From Gemmatimonadota bacterium (lineage in GTDB: Bacteria; Gemmatimonadota; Gemmatimonadetes; Gemmatimonadales; GWC2-71-9): DNA of 34,881 nucleotides. This document shows, one piece after another, positions 7,923 to 33,014 of this stretch. The DNA is taken from the NCBI GenBank assembly GCA_039586365.1, contig JBDHKN010000053.1:1-34881 (forward strand), written 5' to 3'. The notes under the pieces are model-generated. The model was not told where the DNA came from. It searched no databases and saw nothing but the letters and a program-made list of their open reading frames with translations. The translations under genes were made by a program, and so were the position numbers. Position 1 is the first letter of the stretch. Each line of letters begins with the position of its first letter.

Positions 7923-8085
7923 ACTATAATACGACCAAGAATGGTGTAAAGTTTCCGGGAGAGATCACTTCTTCCATCACAACAAAGACCCCCTGTTTTG
8001 TCTTGGAATCTAATACAAAGTGTCCAAGGAGATCTGATATAGCTACACCCATTAAGCCGTTCTATCTCCAGATTGCATGAAAATA

Positions 8086-8116
8086 GCCCTATACGGGTGC
8101 TCATCCGATATAGGGC
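8086..8116 (-). terminator. Hairpin downstream of FG-GAP gene copy A
   Basis: GCCCTATACGGGTG / CATCCGATATAGGGC stem followed by TATTTT on the minus strand. Confidence 0.55.
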
Positions 8117-8158
8117 CACTTTGTTTATATGAGTCTGAGGCATGCTCTCAGACACCAA

Positions 8159-10693: not shown

Positions 10694-10746
10694 ACACCTC
10701 CAGTGTAAGAAGCCAGAAGACCTTCAAAAGTTCACGACTCTCTAAA

Positions 10747-10762
10747 AGCAATCGCAATACCA
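10747..10762 (-). promoter_or_regulatory. sigma54 (-24/-12) promoter of FG-GAP copy A
   Basis: Minus strand TGGTATTGCGATTGCT fits TGGYAY-N5-TTGCW; conserved in copy B. Confidence 0.75.
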
Positions 10763-10942
10763 CTACGGCCCTTCCCCTGGATCCCTACTAATATGTTGTC
10801 AGGTAAGGAAATAGAGAATCACAATGTGGAGGTTCGTGGAAAGGGTAATCAGAAAAGGTTTAAATAATATTACCGAACAGCCGAGTAAAAACCCGTGAGA
10901 GGCAGGTTATCTTTTGATCCTATCTATAAATAGACAATAGTA

Positions 10943-12676: not shown

Positions 12677-12793
12677 AGTTCTTTTACCTCGAGATCCGCA
12701 AACCTTTCGCGTCCACTACCATATGTTTGGTTGGTCCGAGAATCTAAGAAATTGCTCTCTTTCAAGGCGAAATTCATACTTTACCTATTTGTA

Positions 12794-12822
12794 ATGATAC
12801 CATAGGACTGGATTCTGGTCAA
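12794..12822 (-). promoter_or_regulatory. sigma70 promoter of the activator gene
   Basis: Minus strand TTGACC-N17-TATCAT with extended -10 TG; the same boxes precede both kinases. Confidence 0.7.
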
Positions 12823-12872
12823 GTAGGGTATCAATTTTTATCACCCGAGGAATACATGGTCTTTTACTCCAT

Positions 12873-12911
12873 AAAGAAATCTGCCCCGTCTCCATACAAG
12901 AACAGGGCAGA
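12873..12911 (-). terminator. Terminator of the 19990-12986 operon
   Basis: Minus strand TCTGCCCTGTTC...AGACGGGGCAGA followed by TTTCTTT. Confidence 0.7.
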
Positions 12912-12985
12912 CCTAAATTTTTCAACGCTTATTACTTGCCCTTTGCTCTCCACCCTTAAGGATAGCCAGGAAAAACCTCTCTGTA

Positions 12986-13564
12986 TTACTTGAGCATTAC
13001 CATCTTTCGTATTGCTGTAAATTCACCCGCCACTACACGGTAGAGGTATATCCCGCTTCCCACTCGCTCACCCCGACTGTTACGTCCGTCCCAGTGAACC
13101 TTGTATGTGCCGGGTTCACTGTCCCGATCAACCAGTGTGCGAACATGCTGACCCCGTATATTGTAGATGTCGAGACGGACATGCACGTCCTGGCCCACAG
13201 TACCTGGGATGTCGAACTGGATCGTTGTGGATGGGTTGAATGGATTGGGATAATTCTGACCTAGAGCGAATGTACGTGGTAACAGGCTGCCCCCCATCGG
13301 GCTGTCACCGATTCCAACAGTCGTGAAATCATGCAGAAAGCCCCCGCTAAGCGTATATGTCGAAGACTCCAGGACCATTGCAGATGTCTGACCCACAACA
13401 TCGACAAGCTCGAATGAAGACGACCCTCTTCTCTCTCCTGCCACATCGAACACACTGCGGGTGATAACGTACTGGGCCAAGAGCAGCGAGGGCACTAGCA
13501 TCAACACAAGGAGATAAAACACAACCTTGCTTCTTGCTTTCGTTACCTTTTCACTGTATCTCAT
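12986..13564 (-). CDS. Small secreted protein: short beta-rich domain + FlgD-Ig/T9SS-type C-terminal domain
   Basis: Signal peptide, VVGQ...LSGGF segment, then LPRTFALGQNYPNPFNP...WDGRN...GSGIYLY...RKMVMLK. Confidence 0.85.
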   Translation of the reverse strand: MRYSEKVTKARSKVVFYLLVLMLVPSLLLAQYVITRSVFDVAGERRGSSSFELVDVVGQTSAMVLESSTYTLSGGFLHDFTTVGIGDSPMGGSLLPRTFALGQNYPNPFNPSTTIQFDIPGTVGQDVHVRLDIYNIRGQHVRTLVDRDSEPGTYKVHWDGRNSRGERVGSGIYLYRVVAGEFTAIRKMVMLK

Positions 13565-13587
13565 CTTAGCACTCCTTTTAACAGCCG

Positions 13588-15498: not shown

Positions 15499-15537
15499 GG
15501 TCTTCTCCTCCGAACAAAGGGGAAAAATGTTTTTAGC

Positions 15538-16116
15538 TTATTTCAAAACTATCATCTTCCGTGTGAATATCTCCCCACCTGCTTTCAAAGTGTACAGGTA
15601 AATACCTGACGCGACCGATTGACCTCGGTCGTTTCGACCATGCCAATGAATCTTGTGACTACCCGGCTCTAGGTCTGAATTGATCAACGTTCGCACACGC
15701 CGACCTCGGATGTCATAAACGGTGAGGTTTACAGATTGCTTTTCTCCTGAAATCGCCGGGATATCAAACGCGATCGTCGTCGAGGGGTTGAACGGGTTCG
15801 GGTAGTTCTGGGAGAGCGAATAGGCCTTCGGGAGGCCTGGCTGGCTTGCCAAGCCGGTTATTGCCTCTTCCTGCACCTTACCAGTTACCTCCCGTTCCAT
15901 CCACTCAAGGATGAAATGTTCACTCTCGGCTCGCATCACAGGGACCTCTTCCACCCGGACCTCCATGAGGACCAAGGATTCAGTCCGTTTATCAGCGATA
16001 ATCTGTTTGCTCACTCTCCCTTCGATGGAGGTCGCTCCCTGGATCAGGAGCCACCCGGCGACCAGGAATAGGATCCCGATGGTGCCAGTTCGTTTCGCTA
16101 TATGTTGGTGTCTCAC
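15538..16116 (-). CDS. Small secreted protein with FlgD-Ig/T9SS-type C-terminal domain
   Basis: GTG start with GGAGG; signal peptide; LPKAYSLSQNYPNPFNP...WHGRN...ASGIYLY...RKMIVLK. Confidence 0.85.
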   Translation of the reverse strand: MRHQHIAKRTGTIGILFLVAGWLLIQGATSIEGRVSKQIIADKRTESLVLMEVRVEEVPVMRAESEHFILEWMEREVTGKVQEEAITGLASQPGLPKAYSLSQNYPNPFNPSTTIAFDIPAISGEKQSVNLTVYDIRGRRVRTLINSDLEPGSHKIHWHGRNDRGQSVASGIYLYTLKAGGEIFTRKMIVLK

Positions 16117-16149
16117 TTTCCACCTCCATTCTGTTATCTGTCACTCCGG

Positions 16150-18366
16150 CTACTCACGCTCCGTCGGTCCTGCCTCCTCACGCGCCCTCAGGGATCTCTC
16201 GTATTTCTCCTGTCCTTCGGCGGTCCGGAAGTTGAACTTACCCGCCTCGCCCATTCGCTCAAGCTGACTCATCGTGGCGGCCAGAAAGTCGTCGTCCAGG
16301 GAATGTCCAGCCAGATCGCCTTCCTTGAGTTGCTCCACAGGCATAAGTATCCGGGTTATCTCAGCGGACTGGTCTTTTCGGTCGCCGGTGACCGTCCAAT
16401 AGACCTCTGTCCCGGGCTTTCCTCCGATGACAAAACGGTTGCCAGAGACTTTATCAGAGACGTAGACATCAGATGTCCCCACCCCGGTCAACTGCACCAT
16501 CGGATTCCGGTTGAGGGCATCAAAATAGTCGGGCAATTGAACCTCGGCGCGCCCCTCTGAGCCGATGATGGCTACACCGCGGTAGATAAGCACCATCTCA
16601 GGCGACTCCACGAAGTAGTGGTTCATGATCCTGTTCAACGGTTGGGTGGGATGGTCGATTGTGAATGTTCCCGCGGCCTTTGAAATCGTTCCCACGCGGG
16701 TCTGCGACGATGCAGTTGCTGTCTGACCGTTGAAAGCAGCGGAGTTTGAATAAGAAGAAGGAACGTTTGAATCATTGCCCACAGTAAAACTGTAGTCTCC
16801 ATCGGAATCGCAGTTGTACCCACCACCCACGGTCGCTGCATAGCCGTCGGCTTCATTATTGTATCCACCACCTACCGTCGCATACCAGTCGGTGGCGGTG
16901 TTGTTGTATCCACCACCCGCGGTCGCCCCAAGGTTGCTAGCGGTGTTGTTATAACCACCGCTCACGGTCGCCGCGGAGCCGCTGGCGGTGTTGGCCTCTC
17001 CACCCCCCACGGTCGCAAACCAGTCGGTGGCGGTGTTAATCCGTCCACCACCTACGGTCGCCCTGTCGCCGCTGGCGGTGTTGGAGTATCCACCCCCCAC
17101 GGTTGAATACTTACCAATGGCTGAATTATCAAGTCCACCTCCTACAAAAGCGGCAGTGTCAGTGGCTGCGTCACCTGCGAGATTGGAGTAACCAGCGGCA
17201 ACTCCACCATAGCGTGTGTTCACCGTGTCAGCATGCCCACCACCGACGGTCGCATAGTAGCCGTTGGCTGAGTTGTGTTGTCCACCACCCACGGTCGCAT
17301 ACCAGCCGCTGGCTGAGTTGGTGGATCCACCGCCCACGGTCGCATCTAGGTTACTGGCTGAGTTGTTAGCCCCACCACCGACGGTCGCATAGGAGCCGCT
17401 AGCGGTGTTGGCCCATCCACCACCCACGGTCGCAGCCCAGCTGCTGGCTTCGTGCTCGTATCCACCACCGACGGTCGCGTTGGAGCCGCTGGCAGTATTG
17501 TCGTGTCCACCAGCCACGGTCCCATAGTTCGCGCTGGCAGTGTTGTCCCGTCCACCAGCCACGATCGCATAGGAGTCGCTGGCTGAGTTGTTGGATCCAC
17601 CAGCCACGGTCGCGTAGTTCGAGCTGGCGGTGTTGTCCCGTCCACCACCCACGGTCGCATACTTGGCAGTGGCTGAATTATCGGATCCACCCCCAACAAA
17701 AGCGGCAGTGTCAGTGGCTGCGTCACCAGCAAGATTGCTGAAGCCCGAGAGTATTCCGCCATAGACTGCGTTTACTGTATCAGAATATCCACCACAAATC
17801 TCTCCAATGACGTCTAATTTGCACTGTGGATCTGTCGTGCCGATCCCCACCAAATCGGAGACCGTCGTCAGGCGGACCACTGTACCGTCATCCGTCCAGC
17901 CTCCGCCTACACCGTAAGGTACTACGACGGGTGGATCGACCACATCCGTATCATCAAACGGCGGCGTTGATCCTTCGGTGACTATATCGTTATCCACTCC
18001 CACTGTGAACAGTTGCCTGGGCGATAGCACTTCTTCATTAATTGTGATGCTTACATAGTAGGCCCGCGCATCGGATATAGGCAGGCGGGATTTCTTCCCG
18101 AGGGTGACTCTGAACTCACCATCTTTGACCGTTACACGATGATTCTCTTCCCACAACGGCAACCCAGATGTCTTTGTATCGTAGACATGAAACATCATTA
18201 GGTATTCACCCGTTAACTTCTCTCCCGTTGTACCCGTGAGTACTCCTTCATACTCTAGAAAGCGAGCGTCCTGGACTACTTGCTTCTTCGCTACCTGCCC
18301 TGTTGCCATATGAGCGATAAAGACGATACAAAATAACATCACGGTAAAAAAAGCCAGCCGTTTCAT
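16150..18366 (-). CDS. Secreted fibre/adhesin-like protein with 14-aa ATVGGG repeats (YadA-head-like)
   Basis: Signal peptide; same N-terminal domain as the 13588 gene; VGIGTTDP; many ATVGGGxxNxA repeats; C-terminal FTIDHP...HYFVESPE domain. Confidence 0.8.
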   Translation of the reverse strand: MKRLAFFTVMLFCIVFIAHMATGQVAKKQVVQDARFLEYEGVLTGTTGEKLTGEYLMMFHVYDTKTSGLPLWEENHRVTVKDGEFRVTLGKKSRLPISDARAYYVSITINEEVLSPRQLFTVGVDNDIVTEGSTPPFDDTDVVDPPVVVPYGVGGGWTDDGTVVRLTTVSDLVGIGTTDPQCKLDVIGEICGGYSDTVNAVYGGILSGFSNLAGDAATDTAAFVGGGSDNSATAKYATVGGGRDNTASSNYATVAGGSNNSASDSYAIVAGGRDNTASANYGTVAGGHDNTASGSNATVGGGYEHEASSWAATVGGGWANTASGSYATVGGGANNSASNLDATVGGGSTNSASGWYATVGGGQHNSANGYYATVGGGHADTVNTRYGGVAAGYSNLAGDAATDTAAFVGGGLDNSAIGKYSTVGGGYSNTASGDRATVGGGRINTATDWFATVGGGEANTASGSAATVSGGYNNTASNLGATAGGGYNNTATDWYATVGGGYNNEADGYAATVGGGYNCDSDGDYSFTVGNDSNVPSSYSNSAAFNGQTATASSQTRVGTISKAAGTFTIDHPTQPLNRIMNHYFVESPEMVLIYRGVAIIGSEGRAEVQLPDYFDALNRNPMVQLTGVGTSDVYVSDKVSGNRFVIGGKPGTEVYWTVTGDRKDQSAEITRILMPVEQLKEGDLAGHSLDDDFLAATMSQLERMGEAGKFNFRTAEGQEKYERSLRAREEAGPTERE
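16790..17790 (-). repeat. Intragenic 42-bp tandem repeats
   Basis: Recurring ccaccacccacggtcgc...gctggc units; the NLAGDAATDTAAFVGGG block occurs twice. Boundaries approximate. Confidence 0.85.
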
Positions 18367-18436
18367 TACAGCCTCCTATGTGAAGGTTAATAGTGTACTA
18401 TCTACTTCCGGCTACAAATTGCGTCTGTCAAGTCAA

Positions 18437-19990
18437 TCACTCAATCACCTGAATCCCGAACGACTCTTCATCGAATACGAGATTCGGATGTTGACCGATC
18501 CTCCCGACGAGCCGATAAGATCCGGCCGGAACGCTCATCGGGACATAGAGTTCATTATCCAATCTCAATGAGCTATGTGATGGCACGTTTCCTGAAAGTG
18601 GATTCGAATAGTTAAGAAAGACCTCTGGGATCAAGATTTCATTCGAACTTGGCAGTACGATCGAGAGCCAGTAATCCCCGCTTACTATATTCTCCGATGA
18701 ATTCCAGATGAGTGTATCAAAGTAGAGGGTATCATCCTTCTCCACGATCGTGGAATCGCGAGGCATAAGTACAAGATCGGCAAACCCTTCCAACCATGAA
18801 CAATCCTCTTCCCCTCCGAAGGCCCCGATATCACTCCTCTCTTCTCCCAATCCCGGGGGACGGCAAGCGTCGAGAATGGCAGGATCTCCGGCATCGACGC
18901 AGAAAGAGCTCGACTCGAGATGATACAGGGCATCCTCAAAGAGGGGATCTGAATTGATCATACCATCCCCTGCATTAAGTACACAATCTGTATCAACAAA
19001 CACAGAGTACGGCCAGTCGTCCACATCCGAGTAACTGATCGTCACGGTTGAAGGTTCCGTCTCCGTGCCGATGTAGATCTCCTTTCCTGAAACTGCCGTA
19101 TTATCCCAGAGAATCGTATTCGCAATGACGGCGGTTGATAATCTCGTGCACGCGATTCCGCCCCCACCCGAGGCCGAATTTTCCACGATCGTGTTGTTGG
19201 TGATAACGGGACTGGCTAACAGAAAGCATGAAATCCCTCCACCAAAACTGGCCGAGTTTCGGGAAATGACATTGTTATCAATGGCCGGAGATGATTGCCA
19301 GACGAGTATTCCACCCCCATCGCCATAATCGACAATGTTGTCCACGATAATGTTGCTGGTGATGCGTAAATCGGAGAAAAGACAACAGATTCCACCGCCA
19401 TAATCGCCGACATGGTTTCCCTTTATCGTGTTGTTGTGGATTCGTGACTCGGAATAGTAACTGTAAATTCCTCCGCCGCGCCAAGTCGCATAGTTATTGG
19501 AGATTGCGTTGTGTTCGATCTCAGAATCCGAGAAGTTACAATATATCCCGCCACCCCCCGGATACTCGTAGACGGAATTCCCCGTGATGATGTTGTAAGA
19601 GATTGTTGGAGAAGATACGTCGCAGTAAATACCACCCCCATTTTCCGCATAACCGCCTGTAATTGTCAAACCGGTGAGCAAGCTCGTCGAATCTTCCCCG
19701 GAATGGAAATGAAACACTCTGCTCATTGAACCCGCATCGACGATGGTTGCGGCAACTACAGCCGAATCTTCCGGATCTGTCCCCATTACAGTGATCGCTT
19801 TTCCAAGGAAATCGATGTCGTACTCATAATAAGTTCCCGGATCGATCATAACCGTATCCCCACTGACAGCGCCGTTTATCCCGCCCTGAATTGTCGTAAC
19901 ATCATCGGGCACATGGATGATGGTAGCGTTCAGGGGTGGAAACAGGATGAGAAATAGAAAAATCAGAAGAATAAAAGAATGGCTTCGCAT
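18437..19990 (-). CDS. Secreted right-handed parallel beta-helix protein with C-terminal Ig-like domain
   Basis: Signal peptide; IIHVPDD..TIQ.GI..A..GDTV...PGTYYE; GGGIxC repeats; RSDIGAFGG. Confidence 0.88.
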   Translation of the reverse strand: MRSHSFILLIFLFLILFPPLNATIIHVPDDVTTIQGGINGAVSGDTVMIDPGTYYEYDIDFLGKAITVMGTDPEDSAVVAATIVDAGSMSRVFHFHSGEDSTSLLTGLTITGGYAENGGGIYCDVSSPTISYNIITGNSVYEYPGGGGIYCNFSDSEIEHNAISNNYATWRGGGIYSYYSESRIHNNTIKGNHVGDYGGGICCLFSDLRITSNIIVDNIVDYGDGGGILVWQSSPAIDNNVISRNSASFGGGISCFLLASPVITNNTIVENSASGGGGIACTRLSTAVIANTILWDNTAVSGKEIYIGTETEPSTVTISYSDVDDWPYSVFVDTDCVLNAGDGMINSDPLFEDALYHLESSSFCVDAGDPAILDACRPPGLGEERSDIGAFGGEEDCSWLEGFADLVLMPRDSTIVEKDDTLYFDTLIWNSSENIVSGDYWLSIVLPSSNEILIPEVFLNYSNPLSGNVPSHSSLRLDNELYVPMSVPAGSYRLVGRIGQHPNLVFDEESFGIQVIE

Positions 19991-20070
19991 TGTGACCTCC
20001 CTGGATGGTTGGTTTTGAAGTTATCAGGAAACAAGGACTATATAAGAAGCGACTTTCAAAACTCTCCAAA

Positions 20071-20086
20071 AGCAACAGAAGGGCCA
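20071..20086 (-). promoter_or_regulatory. sigma54 promoter of the beta-helix/fibre operon
   Basis: Minus strand TGGCCCTTCTGTTGCT; GG and TTGCT conserved in copy B. Confidence 0.7.
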
Positions 20087-20278
20087 GGGTGTGTTATTTT
20101 ACGTTGATCGGCATAACTTATTGTTTAATAATAGGATGTAGAATTAAAGAATTGCAGGTTTAGCAGAAAGGGGTTCGTGAAGGTTTTAAATAATATAACC
20201 TTGATAGGATAAAGGAAGTTGTCAGACGGGGCTTAACACTCTGCTATATCTATAGATAAGAAGCTGTATTATTATTTA

Positions 20279-22552
20279 TTACTTTTCTTTGGTGGGCGGG
20301 TGTGCTGAGTCCTCCAGATCTTCCAGAATTTTCTGGCAGTCGGCACGGATCTCATCGGTAAGCTCGGGCGGTAACTGTCCGCAGAGTTTCAGGGCATCTT
20401 TGACAAGGCTGCGGGCGCGGGCGTGATCATTCTGTGCCAGACGACATCTGGCAAGTTCGAGTGCGCACAGTGCTTGCGAGTACTCCATTCCCACCACGTC
20501 CTGCATAACCTTCATTGCATCGCTCAACGTCTTCTCTGCCTTTTCGAGACGACCCTGTTGAAAATAGAAAATCCCAATGTCCACCTTGCAAGCTGCCTGG
20601 GTATGTTCTGACCCGGGAATACGCTGCAAGGTCTGAAGCGCCTGCTTGAAAGCATGCTCGGCTTCATCCATTCGACCAGAATCGCGGTAGACATTTCCTA
20701 GGCCACCTCCCATGCTCTTTGCCTGCTCGAGCTCCGTCCCGGGAATGCGTCGATATATCTTCAAAGACTCCTTGTACACCTTCTCTGCTTCTGAGAATCG
20801 GCCGGTAAGGTAGTAGCAATACCCCAAGTTCGCGATAGCCGCTGCCTGATAATACTCCGTCCCGGGAATGCGGCGATAGATATTCAAGGCCTCCTTGTAA
20901 TACTTCTCCGTTTCAGAGAATCGGCCGGTACTGGTCGAAATAGCAGCCAGATTCGCCAGGCATTTGGCAATCTCAAATTCGGACCCGGGTCTGCCGCGGT
21001 GGATCTCCAGGGCCTCTTTGAAGACCTTTTCCGCTTCAGGATGATGATTTGTATAGTAGAAGACACTCCCAAGGTTTGAAAGGCAATTTGCCGTCTCGAG
21101 AACATCCCCCGGAATCTGTCGAGAAATCTTAAGGGCGTTCTGCATTACCTCCTCCGCCTCGGAGTAACGTCCTATTACTACATAGAGTGCCCCCAGGTTC
21201 GAGATACATCTCGCTATTTCGCTTTCCGCCTGTGGAACATGACGAAACAGTCTCAAGGCCTCCTTGTATTTCTCCTCGGCTTCCGTGAAACGATTGGTCC
21301 AACGATAGACAGTCGCCAGGTTCATCACACACCGCGCGTGAATGAGGTCTGCTCCGGGGATCCCTTGACAGCGTCTCAATGCTTCTCTTATCGGATCTTC
21401 CGCCAGTACCCAACGGCTCAATGTCATGAACGCTTTACCCCGATGAAACCACCATTCGGCCGAATAGTCCTCCTCGATCACGGGTTTCTTGTACGTTCCG
21501 AACTCCCCTTCATGTGCATCCAGCAATGCTTTTTTCAAAGTCGACATGTCTCGGAACCGGTTTTCAGTTTCGGTTGAAAGGATTCTCGCAAGTATTCTTC
21601 TGAACACCTCCGGTAAAGATATGTCCGTGATCTCACCGACTCCATCCCTGGTAAAACTCTTGGCACTATCCCGTTCCAAACACGCTTCCCGACAGATTGG
21701 AAATGGATGGGATCCAAGGTATGACTCCAGCATCACCAAACCCATCGCGAACTGATCCGCTCTCTGATCCGCCCTGCAATCATTGGAAATGCTCTCCTCA
21801 TCCCATATCTCCCAAAAACTTGCGACTTGTTCGGGCGCCATGTACCCAGGCGTGCCGATAACATTCGTGCTGAAGTCCGTGAGCTTGAATTTCCCTTCAC
21901 CACCGATCATGACATTGTCTGGCTTAATATCCCGGTGGGCTTCGAGACCGTGTTTATAAGCGTGGAGTAGACCTTCACAGAGCTGGATCCCCAGTATCAA
22001 GGTCTCCCTGTACGTCAGTTTACCCCTATGATGGATACATCGCCTGAGGTTACCACTCGGCATGTATTCCGAGTAAACGAAGGGAATGTTCCGGTTCAAT
22101 GCCGGGTGGAGAACGTTTTCGAGGAGGTGCACGGTGATGATGTTAGGATGCTGCCCCATCTCGAGCCACGGTAGGGTTTCTTCCAGGAACACTCGGGAAA
22201 TCTCCTCCTGAAAACGTGGTGCGAGATCGAGATAATCGGGTTTAAAGAATGAGTTGAGGGTCTTCGCTGCATAAAGCTGCTTCCCCATATTCATCGATGA
22301 TTCCACGATGTAGACCACACCGATTCCACCCGATCGAAGGCCACTCACCTTGAATTCACGCTCCCCGAAAAGATCACCATGGCCCCAGGGGAGGTCGATG
22401 CCTCTGCCTGCAAGATCAGTCGCAGCCGCCTGGCTTTCCTCGTCAGGCCATTTTCCCGTTATATCCGGCTCCACTTTAACAAGCTTCTCAGGCGCTTTAA
22501 GCGCTTCTGTACGCCAGGATATCAGGGTTGTATGGATATCATTGATATGCAT
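20279..22552 (-). CDS. Hanks-type Ser/Thr kinase with C-terminal TPR array (copy A)
   Basis: SGGIGVVY, AAK, HRDIKPDN, TDFS, GTPGYMAPEQ, DQFAMG; about 42-aa TPR repeats; no transmembrane segment seen. Confidence 0.92.
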   Translation of the reverse strand: MHINDIHTTLISWRTEALKAPEKLVKVEPDITGKWPDEESQAAATDLAGRGIDLPWGHGDLFGEREFKVSGLRSGGIGVVYIVESSMNMGKQLYAAKTLNSFFKPDYLDLAPRFQEEISRVFLEETLPWLEMGQHPNIITVHLLENVLHPALNRNIPFVYSEYMPSGNLRRCIHHRGKLTYRETLILGIQLCEGLLHAYKHGLEAHRDIKPDNVMIGGEGKFKLTDFSTNVIGTPGYMAPEQVASFWEIWDEESISNDCRADQRADQFAMGLVMLESYLGSHPFPICREACLERDSAKSFTRDGVGEITDISLPEVFRRILARILSTETENRFRDMSTLKKALLDAHEGEFGTYKKPVIEEDYSAEWWFHRGKAFMTLSRWVLAEDPIREALRRCQGIPGADLIHARCVMNLATVYRWTNRFTEAEEKYKEALRLFRHVPQAESEIARCISNLGALYVVIGRYSEAEEVMQNALKISRQIPGDVLETANCLSNLGSVFYYTNHHPEAEKVFKEALEIHRGRPGSEFEIAKCLANLAAISTSTGRFSETEKYYKEALNIYRRIPGTEYYQAAAIANLGYCYYLTGRFSEAEKVYKESLKIYRRIPGTELEQAKSMGGGLGNVYRDSGRMDEAEHAFKQALQTLQRIPGSEHTQAACKVDIGIFYFQQGRLEKAEKTLSDAMKVMQDVVGMEYSQALCALELARCRLAQNDHARARSLVKDALKLCGQLPPELTDEIRADCQKILEDLEDSAHPPTKEK

Positions 22553-22643
22553 ATCGCTCTCATGGCCGTTTTTAGTTGACCGATCAATTTAAAAATCCGA
22601 AGCGCTTTTCACTGGTACGTCCGAATCTTTTCTGCACCCATTA

Positions 22644-22819
22644 ATGATACCATAGACAAGGGGGATCAGGTCAAGAAGGCTTAACCGAAAGTGAAAGCAA
22701 ATCGTGGCGATCCACGAGGCTTCCGAGGGTAAAAGAATTTGTTATTCAAAGAGTTGAAAGGTTATATTCTCAAGGCTTTCCTATTTACCATAATATCATT
22801 TTATATGGCCTACCGTCAA
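22644..22819 (-). promoter_or_regulatory. Two putative sigma70 promoters of kinase A
   Basis: TTGACC-N19-TATCAT (22674-22644) and TTGACG-N18-TATTAT (22819-22790), both retained in copy B while flanks diverge. Confidence 0.55.
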
Positions 22820-22867
22820 GTAGGAATAAAGTTGATTTGTCTATATTTTTGATCAGATGTGAGAATT

Positions 22868-22959
22868 AAAAGAGAGAACCTCTTTAAAAAGAGGTTCTCT
22901 CTGAGATTGAATGGCTCCCCCTGATCAACTCATTTCGTACTTTTTTTCTGGCTCCTTAT
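22868..22959. repeat. Junction element R1: terminator-like hairpin + TGGCTCCCC core + arm
   Basis: AGAGAGAACCTCTTT/AAAGAGGTTCTCTCT stem; core at 22912-22920; arm similar to R3. Confidence 0.75.
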
Positions 22960-22979
22960 GCAGATAGGAGGGAAATATT

Positions 22980-25511
22980 TCAGTATCTTGATGAACCCTT
23001 AGGAACTGCTATCCTGCTTCCATCGGATCCGACTACCATTATCCGGAAGGAATCCTCGTCCAGGATTTCGTCTGTCAGAGATGTCGCTTCGAGGGATATG
23101 ATATACTCACCTAATGGATAATCTTCATCGATAATGAACGATTCATCCCAGATCTTTTCATTCCCTCCACCCAAAGTGTATGAACGAGGGCCCTTCAATA
23201 AGGATTCAGTTCCTCCCACCGGTTTCAGCCACATGGTGAGTTCAAATGTTACGGTAGTATCTACCTCAGAGGAGAGAACAACAACGACTGGAAGGTTGTC
23301 ACCCTGAGGTATGGTTTCCAGCGGGCTATCGATCTCGACATCGATCTCTTTCCAATTACCTAAAAGGATAGTAACGGCATTACCCCAATTGGCCACTGCC
23401 AGGTCCTGATGGTCGTCCTCGTTGAAATCGCCGACCGCAACCGAACGCGGACTATCGGCTGTGCCATAGTAAATGGCCGGTTCGAAAGAACCGTCACCGG
23501 CTCCCAACAGGATAGCCGCATCATCACCAATGTCATCGGCCACTGCCAGGTCTTGATGGCCGTCCTCGTCCAAGTCGCTGATTGCGACTGAATAGGCTGA
23601 ACCACATATTCCATAAAAGGAGGCCAAACCGAATGAGCCGTTACCGTTGCCCAGTAAAATTGCCACATCTTCACTGTACCTATTGGCCGTCGCCAGGTCC
23701 TGATAGCCGTCTTCGTTGAAGTCGCCAATCGCAACGGAATATGGACCATCGCCCACGCCGTAGAATGAGGCCGTCCCGAACGAGCCATCACCATTGCCAA
23801 GGAGGATAGCTATATCATCACTGGATACATTGGCCGTCGCCAGGTCCTGCTGGCCGTCCTCGTCAAAGTCGCCAATCGCAACGGAATTTGGATAATCACC
23901 CGTGTCATAGAAGGAGGCCGTAGCGAAGGATCCATCACCATTACCCAAAAGGATAGCGACATTATTACTGGACATATTAGCAACCGCCAGGTCCTGATGG
24001 TCGTCCTCGTCAAAATCGCCGACCGCAACTGAACGTGGAGAATCACCCGTGTCATAGAAGGAGGCCGTAGCGAACGAGCCGTCACCGTTACCCAGTAGGA
24101 TAGCCAGATCATTACTCCAAGAATTGGCCACTGCCAGGTCCTGATGGCCGTCCTCATCGAAGTCGCCGACCACAACTGAACGTGGAATTTCCCCCACACT
24201 GTAGTATGAAGCCGTCCCAAAGGAGCCATCACCGTTACCTAGAAGAATGCCAACATTATCACTGTGATCATTGGCTGTCACCAGATCCGTATGGCCGTCC
24301 TCGTCAAAGTCGCCGACCGCAACCGAAAATGGACCATCAACCACACCGTAGAATAAGGCCGTCGTCAGCGTGCCATCACCGTTGCCCAGCAGGATCGCCA
24401 CATCATCGTTTATAGTGGTTTCCTCAATTCTGTTACAATTAGCCACCGCCAGGTCCTGATGGCCGTCCTCGTCAAAGTCGCCGACCGCGAGGGATGCAGG
24501 ATCTTCGCCCGCGTAATAAAATGAAGCCGTTCCGAAGGAGCCATCACCATCGCCTGGAAGAATAGCCACGGCATCACCGTAATAATTGGCCGACGCCAGA
24601 TCCTGATGGCCGTCCTCGTCAAAGTCGCCCACGGTAACCGAATAGGGACCGTAGCCGACAGTATAGAATGATGCTGTTCCGAATGAGCCGTCACCATTGC
24701 CCAGAAGGATAACTACGTCATCACTCCACTGGTTAACCACTGCCAGGTCCTGCTGACCATCCTCGTCGAAGTCCCCAATCGTAACTGAAGTTGGACCATC
24801 GCCCATATCGTAGAATGAAGCCGTAACGAACGAGCCGTCACCACCGCCCAGCAGTATAACCAGATCATCACCCCAATAATTGGCCAATGCCAGGTCTAAA
24901 TGGCCGTCTTCGTCAAAGTCGCCGACCGCAACTGAACCTGGACTATTACCCGCACCATAGAACGTTGCTGTACCGAACGAGCCGTCACCGTTACCTAAAA
25001 GGATAGCAACATCATCACTGGAAAAATTGGTAACCGCCAGGTCCATATGCCCGTCTTCGTCAAAGTCTTCGATCGCAACTGATCTTGGATTATTACCCGT
25101 GCCATAGAATGAAGCTGTCCCAAACGATCCGTCGCCATTGCCGAGGAGGATAGACACTTCATCACTCCAAAAATTGGCCACTGCAAGGTCTAAATGGCCG
25201 TCTTCATCAAGGTCTTCGATCGCAACTGAATATGGATTATCACCGACGCCGTAGAATGAGGCTATCCCAAACGAGCCGTCACCATTGCCGAGGAGGATAG
25301 ACACATCATTACCGTCAAAATTGGCCACTGCCAGGTCCTGACAACCGTCCTCGTTAAAATCTCCTATCGCGACTGACATCGAACTATTTCCTGCCGGGAA
25401 ACCGAACCTCGCCGGCCAGAAGTGCGGCCATTCCAGGGAATAAGAGATCGTATGCGCAATAACAACCAAAAGTAGAGCCATAAAGAACGCAGCATGGTTC
25501 CGTTTCATCAT
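22980..25511 (-). CDS. Secreted FG-GAP/VCBS-repeat protein, 14 repeats (copy B)
   Basis: Colinear paralog of 8159-10693; start set at MMKR (25511) after GGAGG, matching copy A. Confidence 0.92.
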   Translation of the reverse strand: MMKRNHAAFFMALLLVVIAHTISYSLEWPHFWPARFGFPAGNSSMSVAIGDFNEDGCQDLAVANFDGNDVSILLGNGDGSFGIASFYGVGDNPYSVAIEDLDEDGHLDLAVANFWSDEVSILLGNGDGSFGTASFYGTGNNPRSVAIEDFDEDGHMDLAVTNFSSDDVAILLGNGDGSFGTATFYGAGNSPGSVAVGDFDEDGHLDLALANYWGDDLVILLGGGDGSFVTASFYDMGDGPTSVTIGDFDEDGQQDLAVVNQWSDDVVILLGNGDGSFGTASFYTVGYGPYSVTVGDFDEDGHQDLASANYYGDAVAILPGDGDGSFGTASFYYAGEDPASLAVGDFDEDGHQDLAVANCNRIEETTINDDVAILLGNGDGTLTTALFYGVVDGPFSVAVGDFDEDGHTDLVTANDHSDNVGILLGNGDGSFGTASYYSVGEIPRSVVVGDFDEDGHQDLAVANSWSNDLAILLGNGDGSFATASFYDTGDSPRSVAVGDFDEDDHQDLAVANMSSNNVAILLGNGDGSFATASFYDTGDYPNSVAIGDFDEDGQQDLATANVSSDDIAILLGNGDGSFGTASFYGVGDGPYSVAIGDFNEDGYQDLATANRYSEDVAILLGNGNGSFGLASFYGICGSAYSVAISDLDEDGHQDLAVADDIGDDAAILLGAGDGSFEPAIYYGTADSPRSVAVGDFNEDDHQDLAVANWGNAVTILLGNWKEIDVEIDSPLETIPQGDNLPVVVVLSSEVDTTVTFELTMWLKPVGGTESLLKGPRSYTLGGGNEKIWDESFIIDEDYPLGEYIISLEATSLTDEILDEDSFRIMVVGSDGSRIAVPKGSSRY

Positions 25512-25561
25512 ACACCTCCGGTGCGAAAGGATTTGATAAGAGTTTTTCAAGAATCTCTAAA

Positions 25562-25577
25562 AGCAACAGTGATGCCA
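25562..25577 (-). promoter_or_regulatory. sigma54 promoter of FG-GAP copy B
   Basis: Minus strand TGGCATCACTGTTGCT, near consensus. Confidence 0.8.
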
Positions 25578-25772
25578 GTACAGCTCTTTCCTTGGATTAC
25601 GACTAATCTATTGAAAATAAATGAGATAGAGGATTTCTATGTGGTAGTTTGTGGAAAGGGTAATTTGTAAAGATTTAAAAAATATTACCGGACAGCCGTG
25701 AAAAAACCCGTGAGGGGAAGGTTATCTTTTTGGCATATCTATAAATAGACAAAAGTGTTAGTTTTTATCACT

Positions 25773-26061
25773 TTATCCTCCGGTGAGGACTTGGCGCATT
25801 TTTGTTTTCAAGAACTTGAGCGGGATATTATATGATTGAGACACTCGAATCAAGTCACCCTGATTCTCCTCGATATACTCCTTTATTATCGATTCCAGCT
25901 TTGACTTGAAGTTTAAGTAATTGATTCCCAACATGTTAGCTGCGGGGTTCATTTTCCAGCCACTCTGCCTGGGGGCATGAGCCGTTACCGCAACCACAGC
26001 CGAATCTTCCGGATCTGTCCCCATTCCAGTGATCGCGTTCCCAAGGAAATCGATGTCGCAT
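25773..26061 (-). pseudogene. Chimeric remnant: beta-helix 5' fragments fused to the activator HTH 3' end
   Basis: MGTDPEDSAVVA matches the 18437 gene; RQSGWKMNPAANMLGINYLNFKSKLE...LKTKM matches the activator C-terminus; original ATG at 26061 is out of frame. Confidence 0.9.
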
Positions 26062-26141
26062 TGTGACCTTCCTGGATCGTTGGTTTTGAAGTTATCAGGA
26101 AACCGGGACTATATAAGAAGCGACTTTCAAAACTCTCCAAA

Positions 26142-26157
26142 AGCAACAGACGGACCA
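26142..26157 (-). promoter_or_regulatory. Orphaned sigma54 promoter (copy of 20071-20086)
   Basis: Minus strand TGGTCCGTCTGTTGCT in the duplicated intergenic region. Confidence 0.6.
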
Positions 26158-26347
26158 GGGTGTGTCATTTTACGTTGACGGCATAACCTATTGTTTAATA
26201 ATAGGATGGGAGATCAAAGAATTGCAGATTTAGCAAAAAGGGTTCATGAAGGTTTTAAATAATATAACCTTGATAGGATGAAGGAAATTGTTAGGAGGGG
26301 CTTAACACTCTGCTATGTCTAAAGATAAGAAGCTGTATTATAATTTA

Positions 26348-28687
26348 TTACTTTTCTTTGGTGGGCGGGTGCGATGAGTCCTCAAGATCCTCCAGAATTT
26401 TCTGGCAGCCAGCACGGATCTCATCGGTACCTTCAGGCGGTAAAGGTTCGCAGAGTTTCAGAGTTTCTTCGGCCAAGCTACGGGCACTGGCGTAATCCTT
26501 TTGTGCCAGACAACATCGGGCGAGTTCGAGTGTGCACTGTACTAGACTATGCTCCATTCCCGCTATACCCTGCAAAATCTCCTTCACTTCGCTTAAGGTC
26601 CTCTCCGCCTTTTCGAGACGACCCTGCTGAAAATAAAGAATCCCCATGTTCGCCTTACATTGGGCTTGACGATGTTCTGTTCCAGGGATTCGTATCAAGA
26701 TCTTTAACGCTTGCTCGAGAGCTTGCTCGGCTTCTTCCAAACGGCCAGAGTCACGGTAAACGTGCCCCAGGCCACCCCCCAAGCACTTTGCCTGATCGAG
26801 TTCCGTCCCGGGAATGCGTCGATATATATTCAAAGCCTCCCTGTACCCCATCTCTGCCTCTGAAAAACGGCCGGCGCTGAGGTAACCATGTGCCATGTTT
26901 CCTGTCACCACCGCTTGCATATATTCCGTCCCGGGAATGCGGCGATATATCTTCAAAGCCTCCTTGTGCGCCTTCTCTGCTTTGGAAAATCGTCTTGTAA
27001 CGTCCCATACCGACCCCAAATTCGCCAGGCATCCGGCCAGTTCATACTCGGATCCGGGTGTGCCGCGATAGATTTCCAGGGCTTCTTTGTAAACCTTTTC
27101 TGCCTCTGGATAACGACTTGTAGTAAAAAAGATATTACCCAAATATTTCAAGCAACTTGCCATCTCGAGAACATTCCCCTGGATTTGCTGATAGATCTTC
27201 AGAGCATCTTGTATTGCTTTCTCAGCCTCGGGGAAGCGGCCGGTTCTACGATAAAGACCACCCAGTTTGAGGCTGCATCTCGCTATTTCACGTTCCTCCC
27301 GTGGAAGGCGACGTAGGAGCTTCAAAGCCTCTTGATATTTCTTCTCTGCATCGTGGAAGCGACAGGTCTCTCGATGAACCATCCCCAGATTCATCATGCA
27401 CTGAGCCTTAAAGAGGTCTGTCCCGGGAATCTCTTGGCTGCGCTGTAACGCCTCTTTCAATGGAGCTTCCGCCATTACCCAACGGCCCAACGTCATGAAC
27501 GCCTTCGCCCGATGAAACCACCATTCGGCCGAATCGACCACCCCAACAACAGGTTTCTCGTACGTTCCGAATTCCTCTTCATGCGCGGCCAGCAGCACCT
27601 TTTTCATGGCCGACATGTCTCGATACCGTTTTTCAGGTTCAGGCGAAAAGACCTTCGCAATGACCTTCCTGAACACTTCCGGTAAAGAATTGTACTCGAT
27701 TTTACCTACTCCATCTCTGGCAAAACTCTCGGCAATGTCCCGCTCCAAAGACGCTTCCCGACAGATCGGACAGGGATGGGACCCAAGGTATGACTCTAGC
27801 ATCACCAACCCAACAGCAAACTGATCCGCACGATGATCAACCAGATTGTTACCAGGTTCTATTTCCCCATCCCACATTTCCCACAATCCGAAAACCTGTT
27901 CGGGTGCCATATAACCCGACGTACCGATTACATTCGTGCTGAAATCCGTGAGCTTGAATATGCTCTCCCCAACAACCATAATGTTATCCGGCTTGATATC
28001 CCGATGGGACTCGAGACCATGCTTATAGGCGTGGAGCAGACTATCACAGAGTTGTATCCCTAGCGTCAGAACTTCCTTGTAATTCAGTGTACCCTTCTCC
28101 TTTAAATACTGCCTCAGATTGCCGCCCGGTACGTACTCAGAATAAACAAAGGGAATGTTCCGGTTCAAAATAGGGTGGAGAATGTTCTCTAACATGTGCA
28201 CGGAAATAATGTGAGGATGTCGCCCCATCTCGAGCCAGGGCAGTGTCTCCTCTAAAAACGCCTGTGCAATCTCCTCCTGAAGCCGTGGTGCAAGATCGAG
28301 ATAATCCGGTTTTAGGAATGAATTGAGGGTCTTCGCGGCATAGATCCTTTTCTCCTCGTTCATCGAAGACTCTACGAAATAGACCATTCCAATCCCCCCA
28401 GACCGGAGGCCGATCACCTTGAATTCACTCTCCCCAAACGTCTTACCATGGTTCCAGGGGAGGTCGATGCCTCTGCTCGCAAGATCAGTCGCAGCCGCCT
28501 GGCTTTGCTCGTCAGGCCACCTACCCATTGCCTCCGGCTTTACGCTGATGGGTCTCTCCTGCTCCTGGAGTGATGCTGTACGCCAGAGGGTCAGGGTAGC
28601 ACGGAAATCGTTTTTTTGACCATCCCTGTCATGATCGCTTCTGGTTGTCGGACCGTTCTGACAATCCGAAGTGCTCTTCTCTGGCAC
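26348..28687 (-). CDS. Hanks-type Ser/Thr kinase with TPR array (copy B)
   Basis: Colinear paralog of 20279-22552; GTG start with AAGGAG; HRDIKPDN, TDFS, YMAPEQ. Confidence 0.92.
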   Translation of the reverse strand: MPEKSTSDCQNGPTTRSDHDRDGQKNDFRATLTLWRTASLQEQERPISVKPEAMGRWPDEQSQAAATDLASRGIDLPWNHGKTFGESEFKVIGLRSGGIGMVYFVESSMNEEKRIYAAKTLNSFLKPDYLDLAPRLQEEIAQAFLEETLPWLEMGRHPHIISVHMLENILHPILNRNIPFVYSEYVPGGNLRQYLKEKGTLNYKEVLTLGIQLCDSLLHAYKHGLESHRDIKPDNIMVVGESIFKLTDFSTNVIGTSGYMAPEQVFGLWEMWDGEIEPGNNLVDHRADQFAVGLVMLESYLGSHPCPICREASLERDIAESFARDGVGKIEYNSLPEVFRKVIAKVFSPEPEKRYRDMSAMKKVLLAAHEEEFGTYEKPVVGVVDSAEWWFHRAKAFMTLGRWVMAEAPLKEALQRSQEIPGTDLFKAQCMMNLGMVHRETCRFHDAEKKYQEALKLLRRLPREEREIARCSLKLGGLYRRTGRFPEAEKAIQDALKIYQQIQGNVLEMASCLKYLGNIFFTTSRYPEAEKVYKEALEIYRGTPGSEYELAGCLANLGSVWDVTRRFSKAEKAHKEALKIYRRIPGTEYMQAVVTGNMAHGYLSAGRFSEAEMGYREALNIYRRIPGTELDQAKCLGGGLGHVYRDSGRLEEAEQALEQALKILIRIPGTEHRQAQCKANMGILYFQQGRLEKAERTLSEVKEILQGIAGMEHSLVQCTLELARCCLAQKDYASARSLAEETLKLCEPLPPEGTDEIRAGCQKILEDLEDSSHPPTKEK

Positions 28688-28936
28688 AGCCGCTCCTTTC
28701 TTTACGTATCAATGATACCATAGGCAAGGTGGGGCAGGTCAAGAACGTTTATACGAATATGAAAGTAAACCGTGGAAGATCCACGTGGAATATCGAGGTT
28801 GACTGATTGTGTGGTTCAAGTCGGTGAGGGGTTATAGTATTATGAATCGGCGATTTACCATAATACCATTTTACATGGCATACCGTCAAGTGAAAACAAA
28901 GAAGACTCGATTGTATTCTTGATCAGTTAGGAAGTT

Positions 28937-28993
28937 AAAAACGAGAGAACTCCCTTAAAAGAAGGTTCTCTCTACAAATAAGTATGGCTCCCC
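28937..28993. repeat. Junction element R2: hairpin + TGGCTCCCC core, different arm
   Basis: GAGAGAAC...GTTCTCTC stem; core at 28985-28993; similarity to copy A ends at the core. Confidence 0.7.
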
Positions 28994-29130
28994 GTTTGGT
29001 GTCTCAAAACATTATCTTGTGGCACTGAACGAAACTTTTTTGGTTTCTTAATAGTATTTAAGATAGCGCCCCATTGCTATAGCCGGGTCTCCTGGCCACG
29101 GCCCCATCGAGCAAAATGGGAGGTGTACTC

Positions 29131-30567
29131 ATGCCACACATTGTGCATACCTTCATTCTATGTTCACTTCTTTTTCAGGGACTTGCGGACCCCGCCATCA
29201 ACAGACATGAGGACGAAGAGACGGTATCGGTTGCAGAGATCCACCTTCCTGCCGATCTGGAGGTCCTCGTTGGGGATCCGACCCGTGTTCGAGACATGCG
29301 AAACCGTTTCGATCCGGTGGATGGGGAATGGTGTTCCGACAATTCTGACCGAGTGTCGATTGCGAAACGCGGCCCCAATCGTTACGGTGAAGATCCCCCG
29401 TTAACACGGGGTGGTGTCGGCTATGGTGTCTGTTTCGAATCGCATTCCCTTCTCTGGACCGACATCACAGCCGTCCTACAGGACATGATCGTTCCTCGTA
29501 CCCCCGGTGGGGACGTCTATACCGACCTGTACCTCGTGACCACGAACCGTTCGAATTGCGGTACCGAGGCATATATCTCGTATCATGCCCAGGATGATTT
29601 CAATTTCGTAATATGGGATTGGGGCCGTTGGTTCTTACATATGGATACCACGCAGACGGTTATCCCCTATGAGTATCTCGGGGATTACATCCATGACGCG
29701 TGCAATCCGGACGGGGTGTTCCGTCAGATTCTGCGGGTCATCAACATCACCGAGCGAACCGACTTCAATGACTGGAACAACATGGTCTATCTGTACAACC
29801 GCAAGGAAGGGATTTGGGATCTCGTCTATTTCTACGCTTATACGACCCTATATCCCAATCAGAACTTGTATAATACGGGCGATCCCTACGGGAGCTGGGG
29901 TCCGACCTTCGAAACCTTCCAGGACCATGATGGGAGCAACAAGCCAATTGGATTCGACGAATGCTGGATCTATCAGGATGGGGAGCTTTATATGCTGACG
30001 CCGGACAATTCCTGGATCGAGATCCAGGATCCCGATCTCGATCCGCCGATCTTTCTCGTTCCAAACCTGTCATGGGCTGTGGGGAGCACGGAGGGCGAGC
30101 CGGAGAACCAGGTCTTCGAGGCCGAAGCGGGAAGCCACGAAATCGGACAACCATACCCCCCACCAGTTCCTTTGCCCGGTAAGGGGTTATCTCCCCCTGA
30201 ACCAGGTCCCCGGAATTTTCCACTCGGCTTCGGCTGGATCGCTACACCGGCGGATGGGGAAGGATGGCTGTTGAGGGGACCATCGTGGACCCTTCCCTCG
30301 GGTCGGATGAACGCCGAGTTTCAGCTGGCAATTGCGAATGCAGATGGTTCGAATGATCCGATCTGCGTGATCGGCGTGTGGGACGAGACGACAGGGAACT
30401 ATGCCGCGGTGGATACGCTTAACCGGCACGATTTTGCCCGGTCGTCCCACGGGGAGCCCTTCCGCTACGATTTCGAGGCGATCGCCGATCACCCATATGA
30501 ATTTGTTGTCTACAGCCTGGCCGAAGAGACATTCGGTGTAGACCGGGTAATCATTGTCAAGAACTGA
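29131..30567 (+). CDS. Secreted hypothetical protein with C-terminal CBM-like domain
   Basis: GGAGGT before ATG 29131; signal peptide; aromatic-rich core; VFEAEAG...YEFVVY...VDRV beta-sandwich pattern. Confidence 0.7.
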   Translation: MPHIVHTFILCSLLFQGLADPAINRHEDEETVSVAEIHLPADLEVLVGDPTRVRDMRNRFDPVDGEWCSDNSDRVSIAKRGPNRYGEDPPLTRGGVGYGVCFESHSLLWTDITAVLQDMIVPRTPGGDVYTDLYLVTTNRSNCGTEAYISYHAQDDFNFVIWDWGRWFLHMDTTQTVIPYEYLGDYIHDACNPDGVFRQILRVINITERTDFNDWNNMVYLYNRKEGIWDLVYFYAYTTLYPNQNLYNTGDPYGSWGPTFETFQDHDGSNKPIGFDECWIYQDGELYMLTPDNSWIEIQDPDLDPPIFLVPNLSWAVGSTEGEPENQVFEAEAGSHEIGQPYPPPVPLPGKGLSPPEPGPRNFPLGFGWIATPADGEGWLLRGPSWTLPSGRMNAEFQLAIANADGSNDPICVIGVWDETTGNYAAVDTLNRHDFARSSHGEPFRYDFEAIADHPYEFVVYSLAEETFGVDRVIIVKN

Positions 30568-30595
30568 GCTGCCCGGGATTTATTACAGGGAAGAC

Positions 30596-30687
30596 AAAAA
30601 AGAACCTCCTTAGCGGGAGGTTCTTTTTTATGAATATTTTGGCTCCCCCTAGCGGACTCATTTCGAACTTTTTGCCTGGTTCCATAC
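30596..30687. repeat. Junction element R3: bidirectional terminator + TGGCTCCCC core + arm
   Basis: AAAAAAGAACCTCC/GGAGGTTCTTTTTT stem between convergent genes; core at 30640-30648; arm similar to R1. Confidence 0.75.

Positions 30688-30693: not shown

Positions 30694-33014
<2,321 letters not shown>

Follow-up and report, generated by a model that had tools for sequence, protein, structure and literature searches.

Hairpin-core junctions in a Gemmatimonadota contig as likely remnants of large serine recombinase attachment sites

The 34,881-nt window analysed here, which is the entire contig C93 (JBDHKN010000053.1) of a Gemmatimonadota genome, carries three junctions, R1, R2 and R3, at each of which a hairpin is followed, after a spacer of 9–11 nt, by the 9-mer TGGCTCCCC on the plus strand. 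On balance we favour the view that these junctions are remnants of the attachment (att) sites of large serine recombinase (LSR) elements, with the 3' end of a tRNA-Asn/Gln gene as their core, and that both of the segments between them were joined by recombination inside the 9-mer. The source genome comprises 5.44 Mb in 132 contigs and is 86% complete, with a G+C content of 60%.

Read on the minus strand, each junction consists of GGGGAGCCA, the 9–11 nt spacer, a stem-loop and a T-rich run. The R1 hairpin (22871..22902, minus strand) was returned by the terminator scan as an intrinsic terminator downstream of the second FG-GAP repeat gene (FG-GAP2), with a 14-bp stem (14 pairs, TTTAATTCTC) followed by TTTTAATT; its core lies at 22912..22920 on the minus strand. 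At R3 the hairpin (30596..30629) has a 14-bp stem with an A-run and a T-run (TTTTTTGT) and forms a two-way terminator between a 483-aa gene on the plus strand and KatG on the minus strand; it was read by eye and is absent from the list given by the terminator scan, and the core follows at 30640..30648 (minus strand). The R2 hairpin (28943..28973, minus strand), identified from the sequence and by a repeat search, is an imperfect copy of that at R1, read by eye as a terminator with an imperfect stem and then GTTTTTAA, and its core occupies 28985..28993 (minus strand). It is located upstream of the promoter of the second kinase-TPR gene, and no minus-strand gene terminates there. The repeat search grouped the three hairpins as a single family (D12), with 83% and 71% identity to R1, and they appear to be ordinary intrinsic (rho-independent) terminators of minus-strand genes.

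The 9-mer alone is not rare in the genome, where it is found 51 times on both strands with approximately 47 occurrences expected per strand. When these 51 contexts were inspected by eye, a hairpin stood alongside the 9-mer only at the three window sites, and blastn-short of all three junctions against the genome gave self matches only. The original prediction, made from the letters of the window, had described the hairpin and core at each junction, a left side common to R1 and R2, and a right side of around 48 nt common to R1 and R3, and had proposed scanning the genome for the hairpin with the 9-mer; all of these features are present in the sequence, and by eye the hairpin accompanies the 9-mer at R1, R2 and R3 alone.

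The common right arm of R1 and R3 (repeat D17, 22912–22958 versus 30640–30686, 79% identical over ~48 nt) is homologous to the C-terminal tail of LSRs whose gene overlaps the att site. The R1 tail (22912..22986, plus strand; WLPLINSFRTFFLAPYADRREIFQY...), an apparent attP-type arm, scored 42.4 bits (E 2e-11) against our own hidden Markov model (HMM) of the tail and 48 bits against a tail profile, A1. In the tblastn comparison with serine recombinases that had been suggested as a check, residues 510–541 of the LSR P0063 matched R1 at 22897–22995 (E 0.002). The R3 tail (30640..30687, plus strand; WLPLADSFRTFCLVPY) scored 26.4 bits over model positions 1–16, is 86–87% identical by blastn to tails in L058–L074, and ends 7 nt short of the KatG stop codon. 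Both tails lie outside any open recombinase frame and have no LSR-like sequence upstream, indicating that they are orphan remnants. Two other explanations of the arms were discarded. Coding on the plus strand was ruled out, as the frame WLPL..SFRTF.L.P is closed by stops 6–10 codons upstream of the W in R1 and R3 and has no start codon. The arm is also not a real tRNA 3' half: ARAGORN returned nothing, and alignment to tRNA-Asn was no better than for shuffled sequences, with 483 (R1), 473 (R2) and 284 (R3) of 500 shuffles reaching the score observed for the upstream parts.

The same tail is found at the ends of complete recombinases. Profile A1 gave seven proteins in which the tail follows an LSR C-terminal domain and closes the sequence; one of them, P0006, carries PF13408. 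A second profile, A2, gave 522 full-length LSRs of ~525 aa with Resolvase, Recombinase and Zn_ribbon_recom domains, and 5,960 cluster representatives at E<=1e-3; among the best 150 of these representatives, 19 extend into the tail. When the C-termini of 276 proteins were compared, 23 were seen to carry the tail and 90 to end in a WLPG.DSN...-like sequence (WLPGTDSNRRPSG or close variants), the remaining 163 including further tRNA-like ends and proteins without a WLP near the end. The tail profiles and the full-length LSRs that end in the tail thus support the suggestion in the original prediction that the arm resembles the C-terminus of a serine recombinase running over its att site.

At L048 a hairpin is situated inside an open frame that runs from LSR-homologous codons into the tail. 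A simple split-gene model, in which the body of the LSR would lie at the far end of the orphan, was sought and not found: in G415 the orphan occurs without an LSR, and in G414, G416 and G417 the LSRs are distant or on other contigs. No tail was present in five LSR-bearing viral records (29–83% complete). At L015 (2928–4810) a full LSR gene is parted from its tail by an insert of ~395 nt that resembles a miniature inverted-repeat transposable element, with terminal inverted repeats of ~19 nt and a flanking 11-nt direct repeat (CGAAAAATTGG) right at the core; the LSR frame there is off by one relative to the tail.

The second type of C-terminus leads to the tRNA genes. In other phyla tRNA-Asn(GTT) and tRNA-Gln(TTG) genes have GGGGAGCCA as their 3' end, with the CCA included. 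At six loci (L037, L050, L042, L025, L023 and L074) a tRNA-Asn(GTT) gene lies 0.8–1.8 kb from the orphan core in the orientation of GGGGAGCCA; the gene ends in ...GGTTCGAGTCCGTCCCGGGGAGCCA, with a spacer and then a terminator hairpin behind it. Translating the 3' half of this tRNA-Asn in reverse complement gives precisely WLPGTDSNRRPSG, the C-terminus of P0008, and at L023 gives WLPGTDSNRRQGG, the C-terminus of P0009. In three contigs from viral collections (L079, L080 and L082) the LSR open reading frame (ORF) and a tRNA-Gln(TTG) gene overlap on opposite strands, TGGCTCCCC lying at the tRNA 3' end. Because the WLPGTDSNRRPSG ends are read antisense from the tRNA-Asn 3' half, the LSR gene spans an att site that has the 9-mer as its core. 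The family therefore sits at tRNA-Asn/Gln 3' ends, its gene crossing the att site and GGGGAGCCA being the core common to both partners, in agreement with the tRNA-Asn/Gln identity that the original prediction had assigned to the core.

Comparison of the two alternative ends shows that the tail arm is a tRNA 3' arm with a 5-nt insertion (GGTTCGA-AATGA-GTCC...GGGGAGCCA versus GGTTCGA-GTCC...GGGGAGCCA). In serine integrase sites, the outer recognition motif of an attP half-site reportedly lies more distal by 5 bp than in an attB half-site. The insertion fits this offset, and we infer that the tail provides the attP arm belonging to the element itself.

We scanned genomes, one per species, with the pattern CGAAATGAGTN{4,8}GGGGAGCCA, which covers arm plus core. 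This gave 43 loci, of which 35 have a 7-nt gap; the eight with other spacing were left out of the analysis. All 35 read WLP..DSFR.. from TGGCTCCCC, more fully WLP[FIV][VL]DSFRT... across 27–45 codons, and their hosts include Thermodesulfobacteriota, Vicinamibacterales, Rokubacteria, Nitrospinota, Eisenbacteria and others. A scan of metagenomes added 17 loci with at most three direct copies per contig, while a metagenome pattern specific for the window's arms gave no match. Altogether the orphan tail (WLPFVDSFRT...) starting at TGGCTCCCC is present at at least 50 sites in several phyla. The synonymous share of codon differences is highest in the tail frame (0.41, with 0.15–0.34 in the other five), and only 2 of 47 sequences contain a stop in it. 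Since the frame is usually closed upstream (17 of the 35 loci have a stop within 45 nt upstream of the W), the tails at these loci appear to be orphan fragments beginning at the W; the same stops, and the lack of a conserved start codon, led us to reject the tail as the start of a small gene. Pfam gave no match to seven tail peptides at E<=10.

Around the core the relatives are less uniform. Among 50 sites examined for a hairpin within 14 nt of the core, a stem of at least 8 bp is found in 19 and of at least 6 bp in 26, and 24 have none. At L066 (~5990–6080) an inverted copy of the 9-mer (GGGGAGCCA) is present 31 nt upstream of TGGCTCCCC, and the hairpin extends to a palindrome with arms of ~22 nt that includes both cores. 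Direct arrays of tail sites have two or three full copies and never more per contig. The genes between the sites of metagenome arrays encode kinase-TPR, FG-GAP, RCC1 and beta-helix proteins with FlgD_ig tails, the same kinds as in the window at 26–38% amino-acid identity. At L058, L059 and L064 the repeated unit is ~260 nt long and conserved between sites and samples, consisting of the tail, ~90 nt to the left of the core that include a GAAACCCCCTGCA...TGCAGGGGGTTC hairpin, and, after the tail stop, a second hairpin, CTCCCTC..GAGGGAG. The commonest module directly behind the orphan tail is a DUF433/DUF5615 (PIN-like) toxin-antitoxin pair with its own promoter, noted in L037, L055, L024, L042, L050 and L052. 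Other elements also use these sites, because intact tyrosine integrase ORFs end 2–10 nt from the core in L041 and L074.

Blastn high-scoring segment pairs (HSPs) of at least 150 nt were collected among the 35 oriented loci (n = 95). Twenty-three begin between −10 and +5 of the core in both partners, a zone that makes up 0.35% of the sequence, and a further 14 begin in the hairpin zone. The switching of halves at the core that the original prediction had proposed is therefore seen in the relatives. To the right of the core, for example, L031 and L039 match at 95% identity over 2.1 kb, and to its left they are unrelated. L023 and L044 have a common left flank of 2.4 kb (89.6%) and differ over the ~0.5 kb next to the core and along the entire right side. 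Two closely related LSRs, P0006 and that of the provirus fragment L076, diverge directly after TGGCTCC. Since relatives switch just left of TGGCTCCCC, and since 9 nt of the core are retained in R2 and 7 nt in L076, the exchange point would lie inside the 9-mer.

One of these loci, L026, is 3,270 nt long with an exact terminal repeat of 141 nt and is probably a circle of ~3.1 kb, judging from the repeat. Besides a single tail-core site it encodes an RHH-PIN toxin-antitoxin pair and a 547-aa protein, but no LSR. The protein has no Pfam domain, and its 654-aa homologue in L031 carries a SWIM zinc finger. The module of L026 is also found integrated in L031, L039, L044 and L055.

In the window, two diverged duplications account for most of the left side common to R1 and R2. 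Module A (19746..22920), which comprises a PMP-like N-terminus, kinase-TPR gene 1, its promoter, the hairpin and the core, is repeated at 25984–28993 at an offset of ~6,070 (6069–6071), with 74–94% identity by block (repeats D3–D11). This duplication terminates with the 9-mer, consistent with the original prediction that the duplicated module stops at the core. The sequence 22980..25975 is an 82% identical copy of 8159–11160 in which homology stops at the stop codon; its content is an FG-GAP gene with 425 nt upstream, including the C-terminal fragment of a sigma-54 activator. On the strength of these two duplications, 22980–28993 is a copy of 8159–22920 with an internal deletion. The deletion joint contains an 83-aa minus-strand ORF (25773–26058), where a PMP-like 5' fragment (copy of 19746–19820) abuts the 3' end of the sigma-54 activator (copy of ~10943–11160).

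Two features do not fit a plain tandem duplication. The 59 nt at 22921–22979, which are tail sequence, are absent beside the other FG-GAP copy, which has a different terminator. At the end of the copy stands the core: aligned with each other, R1 and R2 have a poorly conserved spacer and then a 9/9 identical core, after which R2 diverges. We propose that in R1 an R2-type left half would be joined to the tail arm, and that in R2 this left half would carry a different right arm. Exactly this pattern would be expected if a single 6,073-bp circle had been inserted at a resident core, with a recombinase that acted in trans or has since been lost, on a contig or island that would be foreign to the lineage of this genome. 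The segments so delimited measure 6.07 kb (R1–R2, 22912–28984) and 1.65 kb (R2–R3, 28985–30639).

Environmental contigs bear on these joints. In a sediment run, X2, which may be the source sample of the window, one low-depth 381-nt contig of 93% identity fits 22912–23217, and its remaining 75 nt are unlike the window left of 22912; other contigs of the run span R2 (with no differences) and R3. No circular or deletion joint was found at the cores in environmental contigs, at a depth of 2–6 and in assemblies that drop rare forms.

Several observations weigh against this history. The R1–R2 segment is for the most part a diverged (74–94%) paralogous copy of the neighbouring 8159–22920, which does not support its being a cassette as envisaged in the original prediction. 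A 9-nt identical end to the duplication would be expected by chance with an estimated probability of ~0.13 at ~80% identity, which is not very unlikely. To the right of the core, R2 (28994 onward) is neither tail-like by the tail HMM nor tRNA-like, and the R3 tail ends after 16 codons at a junction away from any core. None of the 95 HSPs has its right end at the core, and the units would accordingly have a defined left end only. Serine integrases need distinct attP and attB sites and destroy attB on integration, and repeated insertion at one tRNA is therefore not textbook behaviour for such an enzyme.

Neither target nor enzyme was found in the genome as assembled. The original prediction had suggested looking to the right of the window for a minus-strand tRNA with the matching end; ARAGORN found no tRNA in the window, which is the whole contig, and one could lie beyond the contig end. 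The genome's own tRNA-Asn ends in ...CCTCCGGAGC without an encoded CCA, and the GGGGAGC end is not found among its 42 tRNAs plus tmRNA. PF07508 gave no match to an LSR in this 86%-complete genome, and with eight full-length LSRs as tblastn queries the only matches in the window were the tail remnants and there were none in the genome at E<=1e-3. A domain search of the 12 large window ORFs likewise returned no integrase of any kind, which together with the tblastn result upholds the earlier remark that none lies between the junctions. The tail profile had no match in 300 other genomes of the same phylum, and the arm-plus-core pattern was found in 2 of 400 other genomes of the order, with three mismatches each, compared with one for a reversed-pattern control, which is chance level. 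Finally, same-genus genomes carry other DNA after KatG, which counts against an event in this lineage.

With neither a tRNA nor an LSR in the window, a different end on the tRNA-Asn of the genome itself and no tail in the 300 genomes of the phylum, the simplest reading is that the junctions are relics on foreign, possibly mis-binned, DNA. The contig may have been horizontally acquired or mis-binned: its G+C content is ~52% (~50% in the 8–30 kb stretch) against 60% for the genome, and tail sites are missing from the same-phylum genomes. Since tail and pattern are lacking in the genomes of the phylum and the order, the events may not have happened in this lineage.

A less probable account, though one to be taken seriously, is that the junctions are passive relics only. 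The tail-core-terminator would then be an ordinary 3' end for FG-GAP2 and KatG, R2 would simply mark where a segmental duplication of the kinase module stops, the duplication having arisen through replication or homologous recombination, and no site-specific event would have taken place at the three sites. The large diverged duplications on both sides (19746–22920 versus 25984–28993, and 8159–11160 versus 22980–25975) are in keeping with this, as is the lack of a recombinase and of a matching tRNA in window and genome; in L058 and L064, moreover, complete ~260-nt units recur behind one gene after another, conserved in the flanks on both sides, which fits spread by duplication. Against this account, the duplication ends exactly at a boundary used throughout the family, the 59 nt which follow are tail and are absent beside the other FG-GAP copy, the core is 9/9 identical past a diverged spacer, and the contig of a relative in run X2 breaks at 22912.

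A more far-reaching version of the att-site reading is, in our estimation, rather improbable. In it, a large family of serine integrases spanning many phyla would have attP within the 3' end of its own gene and cross over at the CCA end of tRNA-Asn/Gln. Integration would exchange the C-terminus of the LSR, replacing the 33-aa element tail with the 13-aa tRNA-antisense peptide and so acting as a built-in direction switch, and leftover sites would capture recombinase-less segments in trans. The leftover tail-core-terminator sites would mimic the target, and kinase, FG-GAP and other secreted-protein genes would be shuffled between them in a serine-recombinase counterpart of a cassette array; this part too we consider doubtful.

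It is very unlikely that arm and hairpin together form a functional minus-strand RNA, either a 3' untranslated region element or a small RNA of co-regulated genes, with the likeness to LSR tails being secondary. Its position would suit such a role, as in the window the sequence comes behind the stop codons of FG-GAP2 and KatG and in L058 behind those of kinase, FG-GAP and RCC1 genes, and by eye a small ACTCA/TGAGT stem is possible in some copies. That stem is lost in acidobacterial-type copies (also by eye), and the substitution pattern and the open frame favour coding on the opposite strand, where the sequence is found in frame at the ends of full-length LSRs. Rfam gave eight matches in the window (E<=5), all far under the gathering scores, and in the loci of 12 relatives it gave tRNAs and a group II intron elsewhere only, with none at the element. 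Least credible of all is an integron-like array in which an integron-type tyrosine recombinase would move the cassettes and the hairpins would be attC-like folded sites. Short gene cassettes, including toxin-antitoxin pairs, do occur in arrays with two or three direct sites, and the integrase ORFs of L041 and L074 end close to the core. Against this, the hairpins are short (stems of 6–15 bp; simple 14–15-bp stems in the window), unrelated in sequence between loci and followed by terminator-like T-runs, 24 of 50 sites have none within 14 nt of the core, no R''/R' core motifs were seen by eye, and no array exceeds three full copies per contig.

All genes around the junctions except the 483-aa gene are on the minus strand. 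From high to low coordinates the order is KatG, R3, the 483-aa gene, R2, a promoter, kinase-TPR gene 2, fragments, FG-GAP2, R1, a promoter, kinase-TPR gene 1 and the PMP-like beta-helix gene. KatG (30694..32937, minus strand) encodes a catalase-peroxidase that is 78–80% identical at the nucleotide level in same-genus genomes, the homology stopping at its stop codon. The 483-aa gene (29116..30567, plus strand) has no Pfam family, is the sole gene between R2 and R3 and converges on R3. The two Ser/Thr-kinase-TPR genes lie at 26348–28687 (gene 2) and 20279–22552 (gene 1) and FG-GAP2 at 22980–25550, all on the minus strand. Within the left side common to R1 and R2, the promoter scan placed a sigma-70-like promoter of kinase-TPR gene 1 (TTGACG-18-TATTAT; 22790..22819, minus strand), and an identical one is present upstream of kinase-TPR gene 2 (28860..28889, minus strand). 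The 5' leaders of both kinase genes contain a second conserved block (22697–22717 and 28771–28785), in which a small hairpin, CGTGGATC(G/T)CCACG, precedes a T-rich run and another promoter-like sequence, TTGACC...TATCAT; the block could be an attenuator or operator.

Further from the junctions, 5704–19990 encodes several large proteins with FlgD_ig or Por_Secre_tail C-terminal domains in the style of type IX secretion, among them a subtilase and two 192-aa proteins; together with an adjoining GAF-sigma-54 activator this points to a secreted-protein island. A perfect 42-nt tandem duplication (two copies, 32926–33009) lies across the KatG start region, and one contig of run X2 joins 32925 to 32968 as a single copy, indicating that the duplication is polymorphic. 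Synteny of the contig ends with same-genus genomes is limited to single genes (66–80% nucleotide identity), which are unlinked in the one complete genome.

An odd triple repeat is thus explained by ordinary biology, namely terminators and relic att sites, and the 8–31 kb stretch is probably foreign DNA built of paralogous secreted-protein and kinase modules. Beyond the window, the repeat leads to a coherent LSR family with thousands of members (the 5,960 representatives) at tRNA-Asn/Gln genes. Serine integrases are prized in genome engineering, and a family from nature that has a defined, highly conserved tRNA target, and perhaps an integration-linked C-terminal switch, would offer testable att sites and a route to the control of directionality. 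In the titles and abstracts consulted, we found no published description of a serine recombinase family with a frame across a tRNA-Asn/Gln att core and two C-termini.

Genomic islands and prophages at tRNA 3' ends are well known and include integrase-less tandem arrays, such as the accretion of cis-mobilisable elements (CIMEs) in streptococcal integrative and conjugative elements. The sites described here are similar in that the core is identical to the tRNA end and recurs at the far junction, variable DNA accumulates between the tRNA and the original downstream flank (L023/L044), and some segments have no recombinase. They differ in that the enzyme is an LSR, where a tyrosine integrase is usual, and in that the window has neither tRNA nor recombinase. 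The IntP/IntX integrase of myxophage Mx8 and the integrases of the Sulfolobus SSV1 type are encoded by genes that contain attP, and integration changes or splits the gene. The LSR ORF resembles these in crossing the att core and having two alternative C-termini, WLPGTDSNRRPSG from tRNA antisense and WLPFVDSFRT... from the element arm. Unlike these tyrosine recombinases it is a serine recombinase, and the tail form is only presumed to be the excised (attP) form.

Among serine recombinases, CcrAB acts at the 3' end of rlmH in the composite islands of the staphylococcal cassette chromosome (SCC), and the LSR of the phage-inducible chromosomal island-like element (PLE) integrates into superintegron repeats. 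As in these systems, the serine recombinases here target a conserved gene, at its 3' end, or a repeat for insertion, and tandem elements, not all with a recombinase of their own, are delimited by direct repeats of the target. In Vibrio cholerae the PLE is described as using a satellite recombinase (PMC9638900). The present family differs from SCC and PLE in having a tRNA 3' end as its target and in being known from sequence alone. In kind, the junctions belong with what is already known: tRNA-targeted integrative elements, their scars and their tandem accretion.

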